Source: a bacterium (GTDB lineage: Bacteria > UBA8248). From it: a stretch of DNA of 64,000 nucleotides. The stretch spans positions 1,440,001 to 1,504,000 of the forward strand of contig OZ242260.1 in NCBI GenBank assembly GCA_965207065.1, in the 5' to 3' direction. The translations under genes were made by a program, and so were the position numbers. This document shows, piece by piece, positions 6,481-61,018 of the stretch (position 1 is the first letter of the stretch; every line of letters starts with the position of its first letter). Below the pieces are notes generated by a model. That model was not told where the DNA came from and did not search any database. It was given only the letters and a program-made list of their open reading frames with translations.

Positions 6481-8346
6481 ATGACAACTCCTAGCCGGGG
6501 AATAGGTGCGCTGCGTGAGTATTTATATGGTGAAGATATTGGGCAGGCAAAGATAGAGCCTGAAGGCCCGATCATAGTGGGCAGATTGGGGAAGTGGCGC
6601 ATCATCTACGAAGTTGGCCCGCGCGGAATCAAACGCGACGGGGGTCTTCGCTTCACACCGCCGAATGGGTTCACTACGCCCCAATTCAAGGAAATGACAG
6701 ATCCGGGATATTGCAAATTCCGATGTTCGAATGAAGATGTTGTTTTAGTTCCATCATTGGTTGAACCTGTGCTCGGCTATACTTTCCTTCCGGCCAGCCT
6801 GGAATTGAAGGTTCAGAATTCCTCATTGGTGGAAGGTGATTCCATTGAAATCGAATATGGCTGGACGCCATCCGGCATCCCCGGCGTGCAGGCGCAAGCC
6901 TTGTCCATGTCCGTGGAGTTTACTTTATCCATAGATTCGGCTGGAGAAGGAAACTGGGAACTTCTTTCAAATCCTACGATCTTTGATGTACTGCCCGAGG
7001 AGCCATCCTTCCTTTGGGTTACGGGTCCTGCGCAGGTAGTCACAGGAGGGGGCTTTTCCGTCCGGGCGGTAGTTCGAGATTGCTTTCATAACGTTGCGCC
7101 AAAGGGAGCACCAATCCCGAAACTTCAAATGCCTGATGGGAAAACGGAGTCTTTTCGTCAGGAGTCGCCCGGGGTTTTTATCTGTGAAAATGTGGTTTTG
7201 GGAGCGCGGGGCGTTCATCGGCTGAAGGTCTCGGCGGATAGTTTGCCGGCCGTTCATACGCCACCGATCAAGGTGTTGGATGAAACCCCGGAGCGCATGC
7301 TTCTTTTTGGCGACCCGCATTGCATGAGCGGGTTGTGCGTGGGGGAGTACCCGAGACCATCAACCGCGCGTGAAATCGTGGAGTATGTCCACGCCTATGC
7401 GCGGGATTGCGCGGGTGTGGATTTCGCCGCCTGCACTTCTTTGGCCATGCGGATGGATGAAGCGCAATGGAAAGAAGTCACCGAGGCGGCGAATCGTTTT
7501 TCTGAATCTGGGAATTACGTAGCTCTGCCTGCGTATGAATGGTTTGGCATGCTCGAGCAAGACGGGAACAAGAATGTCTATTTCCTGGATGATCAGGATA
7601 TCCCGAAGCTGGACTCCCGCAGTTCCGACTCCGATCATCCGGAAAAGCTCTGGAAACAACTCGAAAAATTCGAGGGCCGCGTGATGACGATTCCCCATCA
7701 CTCGGTGAGTGCTGTGATTGGTACCCGCTGGCGCTGGCACGACCCGAGGTTTCAGCGCCTCGTTGAAATATATTCCTGTTGGGGGAACTCAGAAGCCAAG
7801 GATTGTGAGAGACCATTAGTTAATCCGGCGCGCTATGAAGGACAAAGCGTGCAGGATGCGCTTGAGAAAGGATATCGATTGGGCATCATCGCCGGATCGG
7901 ATACGCATACCTCTCAGCCTGGGTTCTCGAACCGCTTGCGCCTCAAGAATGCCTGGAGAGGCGGATTGGCTTGTGTCTGGGCGGAGACCTTCGATCGGGA
8001 AGGGATATTCAAGGCCCTTTGGGAGCGGCGTTGCTACGGCACGACAGGCGCGCGGATTATTCTTGAATTTTTCCTGAACGATGCGCCAATGGGTTCAGAG
8101 AATAAATTGGATGAATCTGCCAAGAGAAAACTCATGATTCAGGCTGAAGCTTGCTCCCCCGTTCATAAGGTCGTCATCATCAAGAATGCGAGAGAAATTC
8201 ATGTGGCTGAACCGGGGCGGGAGTCGGTCTCTGTTGAGTGGATCGATCCGAGCGGCAGGGAACGAGAATCGGATTATTATTATGTGCGTCTGATACAGGA
8301 CGATGGAGAAATGGCTTGGTCGAGTCCTATCTGGGTGGATGGCTAA
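6481..8346 (+). CDS. DUF3604/PHP-like metallohydrolase
   Basis: FGDPHCMS, AYEW, IPHH, VEIYSCWG, GSDTH, RCYGTTGARI, YYYVRL.Q.DGEMAWSSPIW. Confidence 0.85.
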   Translation: MTTPSRGIGALREYLYGEDIGQAKIEPEGPIIVGRLGKWRIIYEVGPRGIKRDGGLRFTPPNGFTTPQFKEMTDPGYCKFRCSNEDVVLVPSLVEPVLGYTFLPASLELKVQNSSLVEGDSIEIEYGWTPSGIPGVQAQALSMSVEFTLSIDSAGEGNWELLSNPTIFDVLPEEPSFLWVTGPAQVVTGGGFSVRAVVRDCFHNVAPKGAPIPKLQMPDGKTESFRQESPGVFICENVVLGARGVHRLKVSADSLPAVHTPPIKVLDETPERMLLFGDPHCMSGLCVGEYPRPSTAREIVEYVHAYARDCAGVDFAACTSLAMRMDEAQWKEVTEAANRFSESGNYVALPAYEWFGMLEQDGNKNVYFLDDQDIPKLDSRSSDSDHPEKLWKQLEKFEGRVMTIPHHSVSAVIGTRWRWHDPRFQRLVEIYSCWGNSEAKDCERPLVNPARYEGQSVQDALEKGYRLGIIAGSDTHTSQPGFSNRLRLKNAWRGGLACVWAETFDREGIFKALWERRCYGTTGARIILEFFLNDAPMGSENKLDESAKRKLMIQAEACSPVHKVVIIKNAREIHVAEPGRESVSVEWIDPSGRERESDYYYVRLIQDDGEMAWSSPIWVDG

Positions 8347-8358
8347 GAGGGAGCGGTT

Positions 8359-9540
8359 GTGGCGCAAGAAACGGCGGATGCCGTCGTCATAGGTGGTGGT
8401 GTGATGGGATGTTCCATCGCCTATCAGTTGGCGAAACGAGGATTTGGAAAAATTATCCTTTGTGAACGTGATGGCATTGCGTCTGGTTCCACGGGCGGAT
8501 CCTCGGCGCTGATTCGCATGCACTATTCCAATAAAAGCACCATTCAGATGGCTTGGCGGTCCCTGTTGGCGTTTGAGGAATTCGAGGAATATTCCGAGGG
8601 CGGCCAGGCGGGTTTCATGCAAACCGGATACTTGGTGCTGGCGGATGATTCTCTTCGTGATGGTGTGAAAAAGAACGTGGAGCTTGCGCAATCCCTCGGG
8701 ATAGAGACCCGCTGGATAGAAAGAGAGGATATCTCTCGATACGCCCCATGGGCCCAACTGGGTGATGTTGTTGGGGCGGCATACGAACCGAGAAGCGGGT
8801 ATGCGGATCCACATGGAGTGACTTCTGGATTTGCAGAGGGCGCTAAAAAATATGGTGCGCGAATTCGACAGAATTGTCCCGTGATAGGAGTGAATTTCGA
8901 TAACCGTGGACAGGCGCGAGTAGAGACATCTCGGGATGTCATTGAGACCCCGGTAGTTGTAAACGCTTCCGGGGCTTGGGTGAATAAGGTGGCCGCTCTA
9001 AGCGGACACCGATTTCCGGCGGAGGCCATCAGAGAGCAAGATACTGTTTTTGATGCCGTAGGTAGAGATGGCGAGAGGGTTGAAATTGTAGTCTATGATG
9101 GTCCGACACGCTTGTACTTCCGACCGGAAGGGCGAGATTTACTCCTCATAGGCCGCGACAACATAGAACCCGAGTATGTCGACCCGGATGATTTCAACAA
9201 AAAAGAAGACATGGAATTCGTTCTCGATGTTCTGGAGAGGATGCAAAGGCGTTGGCCGGATTTTGAAAATGCGAAACTTTTCCGCGGCTGGGGTTGCTTG
9301 TACTGCATTACGCCTGACTGGATGCCCATTCTTGATTGTCACCCCGAGATTCCGGGCTACTTCATTTGCACTGGTATGAGCGGCCATGGCTTCAAGTTGG
9401 CGCCCGCAGTGGGAGAGATGATGGCGGAGTTGATCATGACCGGAAGTTGCGAGGAGCCTGATATCAGCGACTATCGCCTGACGCGTTTTGATGAAGGCGA
9501 TTTGATGCAAAGTGTTTTCGGAACTGGCTTTCAGGGCTGA
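8359..9540 (+). CDS. FAD-dependent oxidoreductase (sarcosine oxidase beta/DadA family)
   Basis: VIGGGVMG, TPDWMPIL, GMSGHGFKLAPAVG. Confidence 0.9.
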   Translation: MAQETADAVVIGGGVMGCSIAYQLAKRGFGKIILCERDGIASGSTGGSSALIRMHYSNKSTIQMAWRSLLAFEEFEEYSEGGQAGFMQTGYLVLADDSLRDGVKKNVELAQSLGIETRWIEREDISRYAPWAQLGDVVGAAYEPRSGYADPHGVTSGFAEGAKKYGARIRQNCPVIGVNFDNRGQARVETSRDVIETPVVVNASGAWVNKVAALSGHRFPAEAIREQDTVFDAVGRDGERVEIVVYDGPTRLYFRPEGRDLLLIGRDNIEPEYVDPDDFNKKEDMEFVLDVLERMQRRWPDFENAKLFRGWGCLYCITPDWMPILDCHPEIPGYFICTGMSGHGFKLAPAVGEMMAELIMTGSCEEPDISDYRLTRFDEGDLMQSVFGTGFQG

Positions 9541-9543
9541 GAT

Positions 9544-10323
9544 CTAGGATTTGGGTCTGGGGTACACTTCGATAAGAGGGAATATCTTTTCCGCATTTTC
9601 TTTTAGGCCAAAGAAGACAGGGCCTTCGGCTTTTTCGCCATTCGCCAGTTTCTGGAGATCCAGAGAATGGCCGTCTGGGTGATATGCGCCTCCCCCCACT
9701 TCCTGTAATACGGCGAGGGGGCCCAAGATATCCCAAATTTGGGGTCTATCGACCAGAGCGGCGATGACGCCTCCGGTAGCCGCGTACGCCACGTGTGCGG
9801 AAGCGCTTCCATAGGCAACGGATTTTCCTGGATAATCTATTTTGTAAAATCGTTTTCGGGACGAAGGCCCTAGCATGACGGTTTGATTGGTTATTTCCGT
9901 ATCCTTTAGATTCGGGAGTTTCTTCTTGTTTTTGGTGGCGCCATCTCCTTCGAGTGCAAGGAACATCTCATCCACGGCGGGCATATAGAACCCTCCGGCG
10001 AGAGGCTTCCCGTTTTCCATGACGCCGATGGATACGCCCCATGTGGGCAGACCGTTCAGAAACGGATTGGTGCCATCAATGGGGTCAATCGCCCAAAGTC
10101 GGGGGTGCTTCTGGTTTTGCGCTTCTCCGCTTCCGAGTTCTTCTCCAATCACATTGTCGTTCGGGAAAGATGTTTTTAGGCAGGAAAGAATGAATTTTTC
10201 AACTTCGAGATCGGCCTCACTGACCAAGCTCCTGTCTTGTTTCAGAATACCTTTCACATTATGCGTGAACGACAAAGCCAGTTTGCCCGCATCTTTGAGT
10301 GTTTTTTCTATGAATTCGATCAT
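9544..10323 (-). CDS. Inositol monophosphatase family protein
   Basis: SEAD..E, GEE, WAIDPIDGT, WD. Confidence 0.9.
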   Translation of the reverse strand: MIEFIEKTLKDAGKLALSFTHNVKGILKQDRSLVSEADLEVEKFILSCLKTSFPNDNVIGEELGSGEAQNQKHPRLWAIDPIDGTNPFLNGLPTWGVSIGVMENGKPLAGGFYMPAVDEMFLALEGDGATKNKKKLPNLKDTEITNQTVMLGPSSRKRFYKIDYPGKSVAYGSASAHVAYAATGGVIAALVDRPQIWDILGPLAVLQEVGGGAYHPDGHSLDLQKLANGEKAEGPVFFGLKENAEKIFPLIEVYPRPKS

Positions 10324-10476
10324 TGGGCACCAAACATTCCGGTTGCACTGAGCGCGGATACTTCGCTATTGGGAGCAACCTATCTTGTGGCGTGAAAACT
10401 TTCCAGCCCTTTGGGGGAATCTCCCAAATCACTAAACCCAGCACCTATTTTGTTTTGATTAGGATAAGATTTGCGC

Positions 10477-11898
10477 ATGGCTCGTTTGCAAACGGAAACA
10501 AAACGATATGATTACACCAAAGGCCCTATCGGGCGAGGTTTGGTGGTTCTTTCCCTGCCGATTTTCGCGGAACTGATTTCCTGGAATATCGATACCATTG
10601 TTGAAATTTACTGGGTAGGCCGGTTGGGTTCAGACGCGCTCGGAGCTATGTCTTTGGCTTATATGATTCCCATGATGGTGAGAGCGGTGGGCATGGGAAT
10701 TCGAGTAGCCGGTCAAGCGCTGGTTGCGCAAAGAGTCGGAGCGAATGATGATGAGGGTGCTGCTCTTATCGCAGGCCAATGTATTTTGCTTCAAACGCTC
10801 TTCTTCATTCCCTTATGTTGCGCAGGATATATTTTCTCGCCTTATTTAATAGGATGGATGACGTCTGATCCGAGGCTTTTGTATTTGTCGACGATTTACC
10901 TAAGAGCCGGGTTTCTCATGCTTTTGTTCGTTGACGGAATATTCACCCTTGCAAATATATTTCGTGGCGCCGGCGAGCCAAAGTATTCGCTCTTCGGCAT
11001 GATTATCAATTCAGGCGTCGCATTCATCGCCATGCCCGCTTTCATCTTTGGTTTCGGGTTGATTCCCCCGTTGCATCTGGCCGGCGCGTATATCGGATTA
11101 GGCATCGGCAGGATGGCGGGTTGTGTCGTGATGCTGATCATTCTTTTCAAGGGGAATGCCAGAATACGCCTGAATTGGCGCCATCTGATTCCGCGGTCCT
11201 CTGAGATGAAGCGAATCCTGGGACTGGGTTGGCCCGCCTGGGGGCAAATGTTTTTTGAGAGAGGCGCTAACCTGGTATTGGTATGGATGCTTGCTCCTTT
11301 TGGCGCGCTGGCGCTTGCAGCGTGGGGTCTTGGCAGTCGTGTCAACAATATGGGGAGAATGCCCGGATTTTCACTTCAAGGAGCAGTTCGCACGATGGTG
11401 GGCCAAAACATCGGTGCGAGAAAGCCTGAGCGGGCGATTCGCAGCGCCTGGGTGACGGTGGGGGCGGTTGTTTCCATCATGGTTGCCGTTAGTACGGGAT
11501 TGGTTGTTTGGAGCAAAGAAGTCGTTACTTTTTTCGGGGTGAAAGGCGCCGCTTTGCCCCATGCGGTGATTTGCCTGCAAATTTTGTGTGTAGGTCTTGG
11601 ATTTGAGGCTACGAGGCGTGTAGTAGCGGGGATATTTGAAGGAGCTTCATCCACAAGGCCCCCCATGGTAGTTGAAGCAATCGTTCGCTGGGTCGTGCAG
11701 TTGCCGGGCGCCTATATGCTGGCGGTTTGGATGGGATTTCGGGAGTTGGGAATTTGGTGGGCGGTGGCTGGGAGTCAGCTAATCGGTGGTTTGGCGTTGT
11801 TCTTGTGGTTTGCGTTCGGCTGGCGGCGACGGATAGAAAATATGGCGCCAAAGGCTAAGTCATCTGCATCATCAATGGTTAAGTTCCCCTCCTCATGA
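10477..11898 (+). CDS. MATE family efflux transporter
   Basis: YDYTKGPI, VAQRVGA, VGQNIGA, about 12 TM segments. Confidence 0.9.
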   Translation: MARLQTETKRYDYTKGPIGRGLVVLSLPIFAELISWNIDTIVEIYWVGRLGSDALGAMSLAYMIPMMVRAVGMGIRVAGQALVAQRVGANDDEGAALIAGQCILLQTLFFIPLCCAGYIFSPYLIGWMTSDPRLLYLSTIYLRAGFLMLLFVDGIFTLANIFRGAGEPKYSLFGMIINSGVAFIAMPAFIFGFGLIPPLHLAGAYIGLGIGRMAGCVVMLIILFKGNARIRLNWRHLIPRSSEMKRILGLGWPAWGQMFFERGANLVLVWMLAPFGALALAAWGLGSRVNNMGRMPGFSLQGAVRTMVGQNIGARKPERAIRSAWVTVGAVVSIMVAVSTGLVVWSKEVVTFFGVKGAALPHAVICLQILCVGLGFEATRRVVAGIFEGASSTRPPMVVEAIVRWVVQLPGAYMLAVWMGFRELGIWWAVAGSQLIGGLALFLWFAFGWRRRIENMAPKAKSSASSMVKFPSS

Positions 11899-36281: not shown

Positions 36282-38310
36282 TTGCGCCAGGCTAAGCCCT
36301 GGAGAGGAGGATGCCATGACCTGAAACCTCTCGTAGCGACCCAGCGGGTTCGACTCCCGCCCGGCAAAGGCGAAGCCGGCCAGCCGGAAGCGAGTCTTGC
36401 ATGGCGTGCGGCAACGCCCGTCGTGAAGCGTAGACAGCAGGTGACGAAGCGGCGGGGTAAGCCTCGAAATCGGTGAATCGACGACGCCTTCACTGTTAAG
36501 CGTGTGGGGGCAGCACCGGAAGCGCCGCCATCGGCGAGGCGCAACGGGTCGTCCGGGGTCGTGGACCGGCGCAAAGTTACGGGGATGGGTCGCCAGGGAA
36601 CCTGGGAGATCCTGCTCTTGCCCGTGGGCAAGAATGCTGGAAAGGGGACGGCCAGCGTGAACAATCCAGACCCCGGTCCGTCGCCGGACCTGCACGGCGG
36701 CGGGAGCGCCCCATGGCGGACACGAACCCGGCAGGCGCCCGCGGAACCGGCTGGCGAAAACAATAAGCCGAAGGACATGCGAGGGCAGGAAGTCGTAGCG
36801 CCCTGATAGTACCGCTGAAGGCGGGGAACCGTGGCCACCGGGACCCGCTGGAGGGAAGCGGGGCGTCATCTGTACAGAGCCACTGATGGGAAACGCTGGA
36901 GGAAACTCTGAGTTCCACGAACACGTACACGAAACAGCAGTGGATAGCCAAACAGGCGAGGGAGCATCCGGAGCGGGTGTTCACGTCCCTGCACCACCTC
37001 ATCGACGGCGAGTGGATGCGCGAAGCGTATCGCCGCACGCGCAAGGATGGGGCGAGGGGTATCGACGGCGTGAGCGCCGCCGACTACGAGAAGGACCTGG
37101 AGGTGAATCTTGACGACCTCCTGAGCCGGATGAAGTCGGGTCGATACTTTGCGCCGCCGGTGCGTCGGCACTACATCCCGAAGGCGGACGGCACGAAACG
37201 ACCGCTCGGCATTCCGACGTTCGAAGACAAGGTGGCGCAGCGGGCAATCCTGATGCTGCTGGAGCCGATTTACGAGACGGACTTCCTGACGTGCTCGTAC
37301 GGCTTCCGGCCCGGACGGTCGGCTCACGATGCCCTGGCCGCACTTCGCACGGGCATCATCGAGCAGCGCCAACGGTGGGTGATTGACGCCGATATCTCGA
37401 GGTACTTCGACTCGATATCGCACACCCACCTGCGGTCATTCCTCGACCTGCGGATCAAGGACGGCGTCGTAAGGCGCATGATTGACAAATGGCTGAAAGC
37501 GGGGGTTCTCGAAGAGGGAACCGTGCACAGGCCGGTCACCGGCACTCCCCAAGGCGGGGTAATCTCGCCGATGCTCTCCAACATCTTCCTGCACCATGTG
37601 CTGGATAAGTGGTTCGAGGAAGTGGCGAGGCCGCGCTTGCGCGGAAACTGCCAGCTGGTGCGATTCGCCGACGACTTTGTCGTCGCCCTGGAAGACCGTC
37701 ACAGCGGCAAGCGGTTGCTTGACCTGCTGGACAAACGTCTCGGCCGATTCGGACTCACGCTCCATGAGGCCAAGACGCGCTATGTGGACTTCCGCCGGAG
37801 GCGTCCCTACGGGCGTCACTGGATGGCGTCGACCACGACGTTCGACTTCCTCGGCTTCACCCACGTCTGGGGGCGGTCGATGCAAGGCAAGGACGTCGTT
37901 CGCCAAATCACGGCGAAAGGCCGCTTCGCCCGCGCGCTGAAATCGGTGCACGAATGGTGCAAGAAAAACCGGCACCTGCCGATTAAGGCGCAGCATGACC
38001 ATCTCGTCCGGGCGATACGAGGCCACTGCGCATATTACGGTCTGAGGGGGAACGGCAAACGTCTTCGGTGGTTCCGCTACCAGGTGGCTCGCACGTGGCG
38101 GAAGTGGCTTGCGCGCCGCAACCGCCTGCGTCGCATGAACCGGGACTGGATGAACGCGCTCCTCATGCGATACCCCCTTCCATATGTCTCTTACGCGCGC
38201 TCACGGCAAAGCTTCCTGAGCGAACCTGTCGGGTGAGGAACCGAGTGCGTCAATCGCGCACGCTCGGGTCTGTGGGGGGCGGGGCGCAGAAATGCCCCCG
38301 CCTACCCGGC
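36282..38310 (+). mobile_element. Group II intron, full length
   Basis: 5' TTGCGCC; domain V at about 38238-38270; domain VI ending ..CTACCCGGC; encloses an RT ORF; loop TAAGCGT (36497-36503) is complementary to the 5' exon end ACGCTTA. Confidence 0.9.
36896..38236 (+). CDS. ltrA: Group II intron reverse transcriptase/maturase, no HNH endonuclease domain
   Basis: IPK.DG..RPLGIP, SYGFRPGRS, GTPQGGVISP, RFADD, FDFLGF. Frame is open from CTG 36896 (GTG 36977 in the ORF track). Confidence 0.93.
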   Translation: MEETLSSTNTYTKQQWIAKQAREHPERVFTSLHHLIDGEWMREAYRRTRKDGARGIDGVSAADYEKDLEVNLDDLLSRMKSGRYFAPPVRRHYIPKADGTKRPLGIPTFEDKVAQRAILMLLEPIYETDFLTCSYGFRPGRSAHDALAALRTGIIEQRQRWVIDADISRYFDSISHTHLRSFLDLRIKDGVVRRMIDKWLKAGVLEEGTVHRPVTGTPQGGVISPMLSNIFLHHVLDKWFEEVARPRLRGNCQLVRFADDFVVALEDRHSGKRLLDLLDKRLGRFGLTLHEAKTRYVDFRRRRPYGRHWMASTTTFDFLGFTHVWGRSMQGKDVVRQITAKGRFARALKSVHEWCKKNRHLPIKAQHDHLVRAIRGHCAYYGLRGNGKRLRWFRYQVARTWRKWLARRNRLRRMNRDWMNALLMRYPLPYVSYARSRQSFLSEPVG

Positions 38311-38320
38311 CTAACCATGG

Positions 38321-56836: not shown

Positions 56837-57661
56837 TCAGCGGAACCTCCACGTCCTGCCATCGCTCTTTCGGCGCTTCAGTATCTCGGCCCTGCGCAAC
56901 TGCAGTTCGGAGACCGCTGCTTTCTTCACTTTCTCGCTCAGTAGAATACCGACGAAGAGGTGCCTGAACGTTGCTCGCGTCACACCGTTTTCTTTCGCCA
57001 AGGCATACCAGATGTATGCCTCTTTCTTGTCGACCGACACCCCATCGCCAATGTCATACATCTGGCCGAGCCTGTACTGTGCGGAACCTTGACCGCGCAA
57101 AGCCGCCGGACGCAGCCAGCGCAAAGCCTTCTTCTTGTCCTGAGAGACTCCTTTCCCCTCTAAATACATCATGCCCAAGGCGGTTTGCGCTTGAGGCACA
57201 TCCTTTTCTGCCGCTTTCCGCATCCACTCAACCGCCTTCTTGAAGTCCCGTGGTAGAACGCCTTCCTCCCCGTTGTAGTACATGAAAGCGAGTTTTGCGT
57301 TCGCCAATCCGTCTCCTTTGTTCGCCGCTGAACGGAACAGCCTTAGTGCCTCGACCCTGTCCTGTCTTACCCCTTGGCCATTGTAATACATATTGCCTAG
57401 GTTGGCCTCCGCGCCAGGCCACCCCTGTGCGGCCGCTAGGCCGTACCATTTTAACGCCGCTTGCAGATCACGAGCGATTTCTTTGCCCTTGTGATACATT
57501 ACACCGAGATTGAATTGTGCGACAGGATCGCCCTTCTTGGCGTCACTCAATGTCGACTCGAAACGGGAGAGCTTGGCGGAACCAGCTGAGCATCCGCTCA
57601 GAAGAGTCGCTAACAACAGGGTCGCCGAAAGCGTACTCCAAAAGGCCTTTGCGTTTTTCAT
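56837..57661 (-). CDS. Sel1-like repeat lipoprotein
   Basis: LSGC lipobox; repeated AQ..LG.MY..G.GV.QD...A..W...AA.G. Confidence 0.9.
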   Translation of the reverse strand: MKNAKAFWSTLSATLLLATLLSGCSAGSAKLSRFESTLSDAKKGDPVAQFNLGVMYHKGKEIARDLQAALKWYGLAAAQGWPGAEANLGNMYYNGQGVRQDRVEALRLFRSAANKGDGLANAKLAFMYYNGEEGVLPRDFKKAVEWMRKAAEKDVPQAQTALGMMYLEGKGVSQDKKKALRWLRPAALRGQGSAQYRLGQMYDIGDGVSVDKKEAYIWYALAKENGVTRATFRHLFVGILLSEKVKKAAVSELQLRRAEILKRRKSDGRTWRFR

Positions 57662-58570
57662 CTATACCACCCCGATTGCAAGAACAAACAATATCAAACT
57701 ACTTCTATCAAATTAGTTGCGTGACATCCAGACACCCTCCGTCAATGATATATATAGTCTGCTCCACATGGCAGGCAGCTATTACCTAGAGAAGGCAAAC
57801 CGGTTGCGGACATATATCCGGTCTCTTGATGAGAGCGCTTCCACTTCCGGTCCCTGATGGATATCGCACACACCGGCCTCAAAAACCGAGCAGTCTTGAT
57901 GACCTTGACACTGACTAAGCTTTGGACGTGTCGGGTCAATCTGCCTGCTATCACTGAGATTATTTTTTTCTCATTCCAGAATTTATTCGCCACTTTGCGC
58001 CTATGCGTTGACGCTCTAATGGACCAAAAGACGGCGACCAATTCATCGTCTCGAACTGCGCTCTCATATTTGAAGAACCCGGCAAGTTCTTCATCGCAAG
58101 TTTTGCAACGGGGAAGGTTCGTCGCTTTGTCCTGGGAAATGATGCTCTTTGTAATTACGTCATTCAAATTCGATGATCAGACTATTTTGCTCTTCATTCA
58201 GGTGAAGTCCTAAACTTGCTGGAAACTATGGAGGGGGAGCGCTAGGCGAATTGGTGACAGTGCAGCCGGTGAGAGTCCGGCAGGAGGGAGAAGGCCAGCC
58301 ACCACCTCCACCCCGAGTCATGGGCCGCCACTCGCGAGGGTGGGGGCCAAGCGTTGACAGGGGCGCCGTGCGAGCGGGGCTATTGAGCACCGAAAGAATT
58401 ATTGTCCGGGATGTCGAGGTTTTCCCCTCAGCCGAAGACAGCATCCGACCCGCCGATATGGCGAGGCGTGCCGGAATCCCGCGGTGTCAAAGAACGCACG
58501 TACGCCCTCTTCCGGGACCTGGGAGGTCTCCATGTCACCCCGCCGTCGTTGCGGGGTCGCAGAGGGAAGG

Positions 58571-59458
58571 GTGCAGCGAGACTAGCTGCTGTGCTTGCGG
58601 GTGAAAGTCCCGCCGGCGCAATTCTCAGTTTGGCGCCGTAGTCATATCCGGCAGGCATTCGGGGCGACCCGGTGACCTGATAGCCCGGAAGTAAAAGCCT
58701 CGGGAGGCCGGGGAACCTTCGGGAACTCCAGGCCTGGTCAGCCCGCTGAGGCGAGCGAACAGGAGGGCCGTAGCGAGAGCGAACGGACTAGACGCCGAAA
58801 ACTGCGACCCGCGTGAAGCTGATTCGAGCGGAGTTATCGGAGTTGCCAAGGGTTTCTCCTTCCTACCTGATGGCCAGTGTCGATACGGAAGAACTGAGGC
58901 GCACGTATCGGAGCTCCCGGCGTAAGCTGAAGGCGGCAATCCTGGAAAGTACAGCAGTGAAAGTCCGGAAGGTGTGGAGGTTGGACAGGATGACCCTGTG
59001 AATGTCGAAGACCGTCTCTATAACCGGGGGAGCCGGGAAGTGAGACGGAGACCCCCACACTGGCGGATGAGGTCGCCAAGCGATGAAGGGTGGGACAACA
59101 TAACCCACCCGGAGCGAGGACCTCTGGGCACAGGCGGCGGAGCCGTTATGAGCATCCCGCACACAGAGGCGGGTTAACCGCTCTCTCAAATGGTGACGCC
59201 TGAGGACGGAGTAAACGTTGGACTCGCCGAGGGGTATGATGGGGTCGGTCTTAACCCCGGCGGTTCCGCGGAAGGCTCCGCTCCAAACTGGGAGGTGCCT
59301 GTTGCTTGAAGCCGTACCCGGGAAAACCGGACGTACGGAATTTCAGGGGGGACGCTGGAAACGTGGTCTATGGTGGAATTGCGCACCCACCCGCAATCGA
59401 AAGAGCGGGGTCGGACAAGCCTCCACCTAAGGATGCGCGCGCCAGTGTCCTACCCGAC
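58571..59458 (+). ncRNA. ORF-less group II intron nested in the outer intron (twintron)
   Basis: 5' GTGCAG; domain V GAAGCCGTAC..GTACGGAATTT; long domain VI ending CTACCCGAC; EBS1 CCTTCC and EBS2 CTGCGACCC match the upstream flank. Confidence 0.85.
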
Positions 59459-59629
59459 AGGAATCCGTAACCGATGATGAACGGCATGGAGAAGTCAGAC
59501 TTAAGTGTAGTAGCCGAGAAGCCGACGAACAAGGGGACGCGAGTTCTGGCGGAGTCGGTGGAGCGAAGGGCCGGGCCCGAGGGGAATCCGGGAAGCCAAA
59601 GCACGCGCCGGACACAGGGCCGGGAAAGC

Positions 59630-59961
59630 GTGTCACAAGCGGCCGACCGGATACGGCAATTCGTTGTACAGGAACCACGGAGCGTCTGACGACGCTTCTC
59701 CACCATATCACGGTCGATGCGCTGCGCTGGGCGTTCTTCGAGTTGAAGAGGGACGCTGCGGCGGGTGCGGACGGGATGACGTGGCGGATGTACGAGGAAG
59801 GGCTGGAAGGCCGTCTAGCCGACCTGCACGAGCGCGTACACACGGGAGCGTACCGGGCGACGCCGTCACGGCGGGTGAACATTCCGAAGCCCGACGGCGG
59901 GACACGACCGCTCGGCGTCGCGGCCATCGAGGACAAGATAGTCCAGAAGGCGGTGACGGAG
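59630..59961 (+). pseudogene. Group II intron RT, N-terminal fragment with frameshift
   Basis: VSQAADRIRQ / LTTLLHHI..AAAGADG.TW..Y / IPKPDGGTRPLG.AA.EDKIVQ.AV, then truncated. Confidence 0.85.
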
Positions 59962-60158
59962 CGAAACATCGCCGTTCACAAGTTCCGAGATTGTCGCTTG
60001 GCGTACGCCGAGTATCCGCGCCGCCGCCGTAACGCTCAACCCGAATTCCTCAAGTATTTCCAGGCAGATGAAGGCTCTGGGGTGCGAGGGTGGCATCCCC
60101 ATCTTGATGCCGCCGCTGTTCATCAGTGGTAGTCCTCCAGATTCAGACGCTCAATCTC
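59959..60158 (-). pseudogene. higBA toxin-antitoxin remnant (HigB tail + HigA N-terminal half)
   Basis: EIERLNLEDYH* overlaps (TGATG) with M..P.HP..I..EILEE.GLSVTAAARILGVRQATISELVNG. Confidence 0.75.
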
Positions 60159-60583: not shown

Positions 60584-60690
60584 AAACCACAGCTTTCGAA
60601 CCAGTGGATTCCGATGAGTTGGATTGTCTGATCGGGAGATGGCCAAAGTTGAAAAATCTGAATTCATACCCATATAATAACCGCGCAAGT

Positions 60691-60710
60691 CCCCCCCCCC
60701 CCCCCCCCCC
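60691..60710. repeat. C20 homopolymer
   Basis: 20 consecutive C. Confidence 0.9.
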
Positions 60711-61018
60711 GAGAATCTCGGTACTAACTTTTTTCAGATCGGCATCGGAAAAGAACCACATGGAAATTCCGGCGCCGATACCTTTACAGGTTCCATTTCA
60801 AACCGTCCAGTCCACAGTTCGGCTTCGAACTTACGTCTCGGAAACCCTCTTGAGAACGGGCAACCATCAACCCTTGCGCCCAAGTTACGGGCAGAAAAAT
60901 GCTTAAAGCTGTTGAAATCAGGGTCTGTTCCTGGTCATTCGAGTTCAAGTATTCGGGAGCCTATCTTGTTCGTTCTTGCTGATGTGGTTGCCGAATTAAC
61001 CACAACCAAGAGAATAAA

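Follow-up and report, generated by a model that had tools for sequence, protein, structure and literature searches.

A probable ORF-less group II intron nested in a group II intron of another RNA type in a sponge-associated bacterial phylum

The locus described here lies in a 64,000-nucleotide (nt) stretch of bacterial DNA, hereafter the window (lineage UBA8248; GenBank assembly GCA_965207065.1, contig OZ242260.1, positions 1,440,001 to 1,504,000). It contains the 5′ portion of one group II intron, the outer intron, which is split by an 888-nt element, the inner element, itself resembling a group II intron and carrying no reverse transcriptase (RT) gene (Table 1). The inner element begins with GTGCAGCGAG and ends with CCTACCCGAC, and its limits can be read from uninterrupted introns of the outer type. 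In a paralogue elsewhere in the genome of the window (G000), the empty site reads GACGAAAGG^AGGAGTCCGTAACCGATGATG, the caret marking the insertion point, with a longer left flank of GGGGTCGCTGACGAAAGG (L004; G000:C1:2317359-2319286). In three further genomes, G005 (L021), G017 and G022, it reads GGGAAGG^AGGAATCC, which reproduces the letters of both window flanks. Because these empty sites belong to uninterrupted outer-type introns, the boundaries are fixed independently, and the inner element is proven to be a clean 888-nt insertion into the outer intron. An initial annotation, made from the window sequence, had placed such an element immediately after GGGAAGG, and all of its coordinates and strings are exact.

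Covariance models assign the two introns to different RNA types. Rfam assigns the outer intron to RF02005 (169.3 bits, 58272-58496) and the inner element to RF02003 (57.6 bits against a cut-off of 49, E = 4.6e-10, 58595-58778), the latter match spanning the full model from position 1 to 138. The twintron-type nesting of one intron in another of a different class, as first proposed, is therefore borne out by both the empty sites and an RF02003 match enclosed by an RF02005 intron. Nesting of this kind could also be produced by an assembly that misjoins repeats, and the flanks of three related copies (L028, G044 and G014a) indeed do not belong together. For the window, this origin is extremely improbable: G000 is a single 4.48-Mb contig, the 5′ junction of the window recurs in G044 and its 3′ junction in L028, and a contig from a sequencing run carries the matching empty allele, with GT..AC ends to the missing segment.

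Table 1. Features of the nested-intron locus, in window coordinates (DI to DVI, intron domains I to VI; EBS and IBS, exon- and intron-binding sites)
Feature	Position	Strand	Basis and remarks
21-nt motif AAGTCCTAAACTTGCTGGAAA	58205..58225	+	11 nt upstream of the outer 5′ end
Outer intron, 5′ part: DI, two small hairpins, start of DIV	58237..58570	+	RF02005; alignment with six other copies, consensus fold
IBS2 (GGGTCGCAG)	58554..58562	+	Outer-intron DNA; exact 9-nt complement of 58802-58810
IBS1 (GGAAGG)	58565..58570	+	Last 6 nt before the insertion; exact complement of 58858-58863
Inner ORF-less group II intron (probable)	58571..59458	+	888 nt, GTGCAG...CTACCCGAC; empty sites, RF02003, fold, Pfam scan
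EBS2 (CTGCGACCC)	58802..58810	+	Mostly unpaired in the consensus fold
T (delta- or EBS3-like), then EBS1 (CCTTCC)	58857..58863	+	In a 22-nt terminal loop
Inner DIV, about 184 nt, no open reading frame	59125..59308	+	Consensus-fold columns 560-744
Inner DV (AAGCCGUAC..GUACGGAAU)	59309..59341	+	Predicted helix, two compensatory pairs
Inner DVI, with an insertion of about 85 nt	59346..59455	+	Consensus fold; bulged A 59452
Outer intron, continued: rest of the Shine-Dalgarno-like sequence, ATG 59474, RT residues about 1-166	59459..59961	+	Alignment with L004 and L028
HTH_3 (XRE-type) gene remnant	59962..60123	-	Pfam HTH_3, E = 2.7e-5, profile positions 3-33 of 55 only

An intact intron of the outer type is 1928 nt long, with only 356 nt of RNA before its open reading frame (ORF), and encodes a 492-amino-acid (aa) group II RT/maturase (TIGR04416, E = 1e-106) that lacks an endonuclease domain. 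The solved structures nearest to this RT are those of IIC enzymes (7uim, 1.3e-49, vs. 4.7e-31 for the IIB enzyme 6me0 and 2e-29 for LtrA), and the outer intron, whose ribozyme is small, may be IIC-like. The copy in the window is dead. Its 5′ end reads GAGCGC instead of the GTGCGC of intact copies, and a 1-nt deletion near 59681 shifts the RT frame, which tblastn matches over residues 70-166 at 88% identity. Homology to intact copies then ends at about 59961, after some 166 of the 492 residues, and neither DV nor DVI is present. The truncated HTH_3 gene on the other strand adjoins this end and is cut at the same breakpoint. Lacking DV and DVI and starting with GAGCG, the local copy cannot splice. 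The earlier supposition that the inner element must be removed before its host can fold is thus moot, since nothing here needs to splice first.

The insertion point was placed by aligning outer-type copies and by a consensus fold of four of them, in which DI closes at alignment columns 23-281. Past DI come two small invariant hairpins, and the insertion point follows within a helix predicted between UCUCC and GGAGG. It is 15 nt upstream of the RT start codon and inside the Shine-Dalgarno-like AAGGAGG. Its position after a closed DI and two hairpins identifies the site as the 5′ side of DIV. Domain II, to which the initial annotation had tentatively assigned it, is ruled out by the copy alignment and the consensus fold. 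Upstream of the outer intron, the motif AAGTCCTAAACTTGCTGGAAA is likely to be part of the outer intron's own target. It occurs six times in G000 with up to three mismatches, and in three of the six an outer-type 5′ end lies shortly downstream, as if the outer intron homed beside the motif. The other five occurrences are at G000:C1 positions 341728, 1135742, 1139267, 1141295 and 1508754. The motif overlaps a weak Ocean-V-like match in Rfam (21.5 bits, against a cut-off of 75).

The RNA of the inner element folds with a z-score of -5.88 against 20 shuffles, none of which folded as well. A consensus fold of seven inner copies contains 251 pairs, of which 21 show compensatory changes, and its predicted layout comprises a large DI bearing both EBS loops, two middle domains, DIV, DV and DVI. 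The predicted DV hairpin has the right size, an AGC triad and an AC bulge, with A.A and G.A mismatches at its base beside the AGC. In DVI, the predicted bulged A is the seventh base from the 3′ end and sits in a 13-bp stem kept across the seven copies, and the G044 copy lacks 57 nt of the insertion in this domain. Group II introns have consensus termini of GUGYG (5′) and AY (3′); the 5′ end here is GUGCAG, with A at position 5, in all six inner copies that have a 5′ end, and the 3′ end is ...GAC in all seven aligned copies. None of the ten stop-to-stop frames of the inner element matches any Pfam family at E<=10, so that, in agreement with the initial annotation, it has no RT and, beyond this, no detectable RT remnant. 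By these features, the inner element is probably an ORF-less group II intron of the RF02003 type, complete and with its structure intact.

Both EBS loops find exact complements in the outer-intron DNA on the 5′ side of the insertion, just as first annotated: EBS1 with IBS1 over 6 bp and EBS2 with IBS2 over 9 bp. The EBS1-IBS1 pairing holds at six of six positions in each of the seven inner copies that have a 5′ flank. The 9-nt match is weak taken alone, because 161 of 2000 shuffles of the 30-nt flank reach a perfect 9-nt complement somewhere in the inner element; its position and its co-variation lift it above chance. In the G044 copy, EBS2 reads TTGCGATCC and its target GGGTCGCAA, so that, relative to the window copy, a C to T change in EBS2 is matched by a G to A change in IBS2. 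Likewise, C to T in EBS1 is matched by G to A in IBS1. Next to EBS1, the CT at 58856-58857 faces the AG at 59459-59460, which had been read as a IIA-like delta contact. The T 5′ of EBS1 does face the A at +1 in all seven copies. Since neither nucleotide ever varies, the delta and EBS3 readings are indistinguishable.

Further copies were sought by DNA search in 61 relatives and then in all 51 genomes of the class, equivalent to the whole phylum as sampled, which is sponge-associated. The family is present in 4 of the 51 genomes (two copies each in G000 and G014, one each in G005 and G044) and at four loci on four metagenome contigs. Four extra matches with E of 0.003-0.007, each at most 43 nt long, were treated as noise. 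An exact 23-mer scan gave two loci in genome contigs, probably the G044 and G014 copies, and four in metagenome contigs, and a distant-mode search of a plasmid collection gave no match to the inner element. The copies occupy about eight distinct sites. Three are in outer-type introns (site 1, as in the window; site 2, in DI; and the RT ORF in G005), two in ankyrin-repeat genes and one in intergenic DNA, and two have unknown partner flanks.

Two full lineages can be told apart by their EBS loops. Lineage A has EBS1 CCTTCC and EBS2 CTGCGACCC, and lineage B has EBS1 CCCTCC and EBS2 GGACTT. In addition to the window copy at site 1, lineage A includes the 92% identical copy of G044, which has outer site 1 on its 5′ side and an unrelated gene on its 3′ side, and two copies that are each 99.2% identical to that of the window. 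One of these, L026, lies within an ankyrin-like gene. The other, L028 (positions 8068-10545 of its metagenome contig), has an ankyrin-gene 5′ flank joined to the 3′ flank of outer site 1, and from there the outer intron continues through an intact 505-aa RT, DV and DVI to the intron 3′ end; either two copies have recombined to give L028 or its assembly is chimeric. The outer flank of the window copy is only 93.5% identical to L028, vs. 99.2% for the inner element, a difference that fits recent spread of the inner RNA or constraint on it. Lineage B occupies outer site 2 (GTGAAAGTCC..GGGAGGG^AGAAGG). In G000 this second twintron is in two pieces about 280 kb apart, one with outer positions 1-52 and inner positions 1-27 (341765-341843, L008) and one with inner positions 43-888 and 107 nt of outer DI (62031-62981, L002), and both breakpoints adjoin sequences repeated elsewhere in the genome. 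The lineage B copy at site 2 in G014 is likewise in two pieces. Two further lineage B copies lie within an ankyrin-repeat gene (L029) and in intergenic DNA (L027), and a divergent 3′ fragment of the family is joined to the outer RT ORF in G005.

The copies in the L029 and L026 ankyrin genes are in sense orientation, and their precise removal restores the ORFs. When the L029 exons are joined, a frame of at least 255 aa is open across the junction (...GAKPDGR^DKAGLTALHGAAMKG...), and the joined L026 exons give one of 251 aa. The joined L029 product appears to be ankyrin-repeat sequence, as assigned by reading rather than by a family scan. Because such products need precise excision, they argue, by inference, for splicing of the family in vivo.

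The match between EBS2 and its target differs among the sites. At outer-intron sites, the EBS2-IBS2 pairing extends over 9 bp in the window, 9 bp in G044 (including one G.U) and 7 bp at site 2 of G014. At sites outside introns, L026 and L028 have no run of 6 or more, and L029 and L027 have 6 bp at other spacings. Congruent with this, the empty site 2 of G017 reads GGAAGTCCGGCGGGAGGG^AG, in which GGAAGTCC matches, by reading, 8 nt of the lineage B EBS2 loop. By these alignments, the outer-intron sites are the best EBS2-matched sites for both lineages, and since the two lineages have their best matches at separate sites of one outer-type intron, those sites look like home sites. The sites outside introns resemble ectopic hits, dependent on EBS1 and the A at +1. 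A stricter reading, close to the "intron of introns" of the initial annotation, would have the family live only on the outer-type intron and need its RT, with the copies elsewhere as dead-end accidents. The superior EBS2 matches would suit such a dependence, as would the finding of three independent sites in outer-type DNA that accounts for no more than a few kb in a genome of 4.5 Mb, with site 2 occupied in two outer copies (L008 in G000 and L020 in G014) that have different upstream flanks. Obligate dependence is nonetheless unlikely, given two sense copies in ankyrin genes whose frames are restored on removal, one intergenic copy, and the near-identity of L026 to the window copy, which makes it no old relic. 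Moreover, an intact outer-type RT is absent from three of the four inner-bearing genomes, and the inner DIV is unlike the outer DIV. The interpretation in the initial annotation is supported in part. With only three of about eight sites in introns, the name "intron of introns" is too strong, and a predominance of homologs in non-intron targets, which the annotation had named as evidence against it, is found in part (two ankyrin-gene copies and one intergenic).

The question of which RT could move the family bears on its origin. According to published accounts, bacterial ORF-less introns usually arise by deletion from RT-encoding introns (PMC2882425, PMC4424553), and a simple deletion derivative of a resident intron, moved by its parent's RT as with TeI3/TeI4 in Thermosynechococcus, would fit that pattern. 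G000 indeed has another intron of RF02003 type (C1:1510482, 86.7 bits). However, this origin is very unlikely for the inner element. A search of G000 with the family profile (nhmmer, E<=10) finds only the two ORF-less copies and no other relative. The RT frame of the 1510482 intron ends early and gives way to unrelated sequence, and the intron is no more similar to the inner DIV than shuffles are (score 30, shuffle maximum 31). A comparison of the inner DIV with five DIV ends from the three resident intron types (the outer type, the 1510482 intron and a 36-kb type described below) gave scores within the shuffle range throughout. Neither this comparison nor the ten translated frames revealed a decayed RT in DIV, which the initial annotation had offered as its own alternative. 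The hunt for relatives that it proposed thus produced copies and no RT-encoding parent. As the genomes searched for an RT-bearing relative are 92-98% complete, its absence from them is not proof. G000 has six RVT_1 matches, comprising two intact RTs of the outer type, one intact of the 36-kb type, one split and one other. Across genomes, the inner element and the outer-type RT show no pattern of co-occurrence.

The account that we favour, with a probability of roughly 80% as a whole, is that an intact ORF-less intron of a mobile family has inserted into an unrelated outer intron. The inner intron would have entered the outer-intron DNA by reverse splicing, followed by reverse transcription. 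It would be a member of a small mobile family with at least two full lineages distinguished by their EBS loops, and the family would also insert into ordinary genes at look-alike GGRAGG^A sites, from which it presumably must splice. Mobility would depend on an RT supplied in trans, and intron DNA may serve as a harmless landing site.

Several observations weigh against this account. The chimeric flanks at G044, G014a and L028 could be artefacts of metagenome-assembled genomes or of metagenome assembly, and none of the five intron-associated inner copies sits in an intact outer intron. No driver RT has been found: RF02003 scans of G014, G044 and G005 give only the inner element itself above the cut-off (one of five genomes searched). 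An intact outer-type RT (at least 80% identity) is present in G000, G017, G022 and G004, and absent from the inner-bearing G014, G005 and G044. In addition, the DV-DVI model RF00029 gives no match to the inner element at E<=10, although it does match another intron type of G000 at 35.3 bits. This miss, together with the non-canonical DV base, means that the catalytic competence of the inner intron is assumed. Lastly, no contig from any of the three RNA libraries examined (two studies) bridges either of its junctions. Contigs from all three libraries cover the inner element at 99% or more, and the sole joint that skips the 888 nt (GT..AC) comes from a run whose kind is unknown and is consistent with a DNA allele that has the site empty.

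Alternatively, the element could be an inert relic that no longer splices or moves in these genomes, its structure just inherited. The broken contexts of all five intron-associated copies, the lack of a driver RT and the atypical DV base would then be expected. We regard this as somewhat unlikely, since near-identical (99.2%) copies occur at different sites in different samples, compensatory changes at 21 pairs preserve the helices in both lineages, and the host ankyrin ORFs stay open across the junction. Conversely, the favoured account of a mobile intron could be extended to a cross-class hyperparasite: an ORF-less, IIB-like lineage that lacks RT-bearing relatives in these genomes, whose EBS loops have been re-tuned at least twice to conserved sites of an unrelated IIC-like intron, and which borrows a heterologous RT. 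This extension is distinctly doubtful. If true, the family would spread with its host intron and may throttle it, one of its sites being the ribosome-binding site of the host RT gene, and the copies in ankyrin genes would represent a spill-over that turns the family into a true host-gene intron.

Nested ORF-less introns are already known. The twintrons of Thermosynechococcus elongatus, as described in the published account, consist of ORF-less TeI3 (F3) introns within TeI4 (F1) introns (Mohr, Ghanem and Lambowitz 2010, PMC2882425). They resemble the present case in the location of an ORF-less intron in DIV at the start of the host RT gene (there between its first two ATGs), in good EBS-IBS pairing, in families with diverged EBS, and in inner copies that are more alike than the outer ones (PMC2882425). 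They differ in that inner and outer introns share an ancestor, the deletion is bordered by remnants of the ORF, and experiments demonstrated the driver RTs (PMC2882425). Here, the RNA types differ, no remnant and no related RT-bearing intron were found in the genomes searched, and the outer copy is dead. In Methanosarcina acetivorans, introns repeatedly home site-specifically into other group II introns, with recombinational deletions and rearrangements and with ORF-less members (Dai and Zimmerly 2003, as summarised in PMC4424553). That homing is into the ORFs of related introns, with no coding exons (PMC4424553); the present family has two ribozyme or 5′-DIV sites and one ORF site in an unrelated intron type, plus insertions in host genes. 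A bacterial group II intron nested in a group II intron is also reported from Trichodesmium, in Tery_4732 (Pfreundt and Hess 2015, PMC4649490), where, according to that report, sequential splicing was shown and the twintron interrupts a conserved gene (PMC4649490). In the present case the outer intron is a fragment that lies between genes, and the arrangement is known from sequence.

What sets the present case apart is the combination of different RNA types, the absence of an ORF remnant and of a related RT intron, and a DV that escapes RF00029. ORF-less introns are described as occurring almost always next to an RT-encoding relative, only one exception being known, and the lack of both a remnant and such a relative as nearly unknown in bacteria (PMC4424553). 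In the four genomes that carry the present family, no such relative was found. The RT-encoding RF02003 (group-II-D1D4-4) introns, such as that at G000:C1:1510482, have a 5′ DI architecture recognised by the same covariance model as that of the inner element. The inner element has no sequence-level relationship to them and no ORF, and its DV-DVI is missed by RF00029. RF00029 is the model with which published surveys detect ORF-less introns (PMC8919778), and families like that of the inner element may therefore be under-counted. If a heterologous RT does move the family, the "driver IEP" (intron-encoded protein) idea developed for T. elongatus would extend to unrelated intron classes. The sense copies in ankyrin-repeat genes of sponge symbionts are concrete loci at which splicing could be tested in uncultured bacteria. 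A literature search on group II introns with sponge, symbiont or ankyrin, confined to that theme, returned nothing relevant by title or abstract.

The window holds a second, full-length intron of the RF02005 type at 36285-38315 (123.7 bits), the 36-kb type, with an RT frame of 419 aa (from GTG) or 449 aa and a 3′ end of ...CCTACCCGGC. Similar strings, ..AACCATGG.AA.C..TTCG....GGGTGATGG, flank it at about 36148 and 38312. This type has seven RNA matches in the genome (111.7-124.1 bits) vs. about two RT matches, so that several of its copies may be ORF-less or truncated. At another locus of the type (L038, G000:C1:2284900-2290600), the RVT_1 match is split (profile positions 1-128 and 124-204) by about 2.2 kb, in which Rfam finds no intron; the DV-DVI of this locus scores 35.3 bits with RF00029. 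In G014, three intron types are stacked: at L020 (G014:C4, minus strand, about 2387-2520), a 36-kb-type 3′ end (...CCTACCCGAC) lies 13 nt upstream of an outer-type 5′ end, and that outer-type intron carries the lineage B ORF-less intron after its first 52 nt. Two further features flank the nested introns of the window. A lipoprotein-like Sel1-repeat protein with five repeats (E = 1.9e-50) is encoded just upstream of the outer intron at 56837-57661 on the minus strand, and an intergenic run of more than 20 C lies downstream of the locus at 60688-60712.

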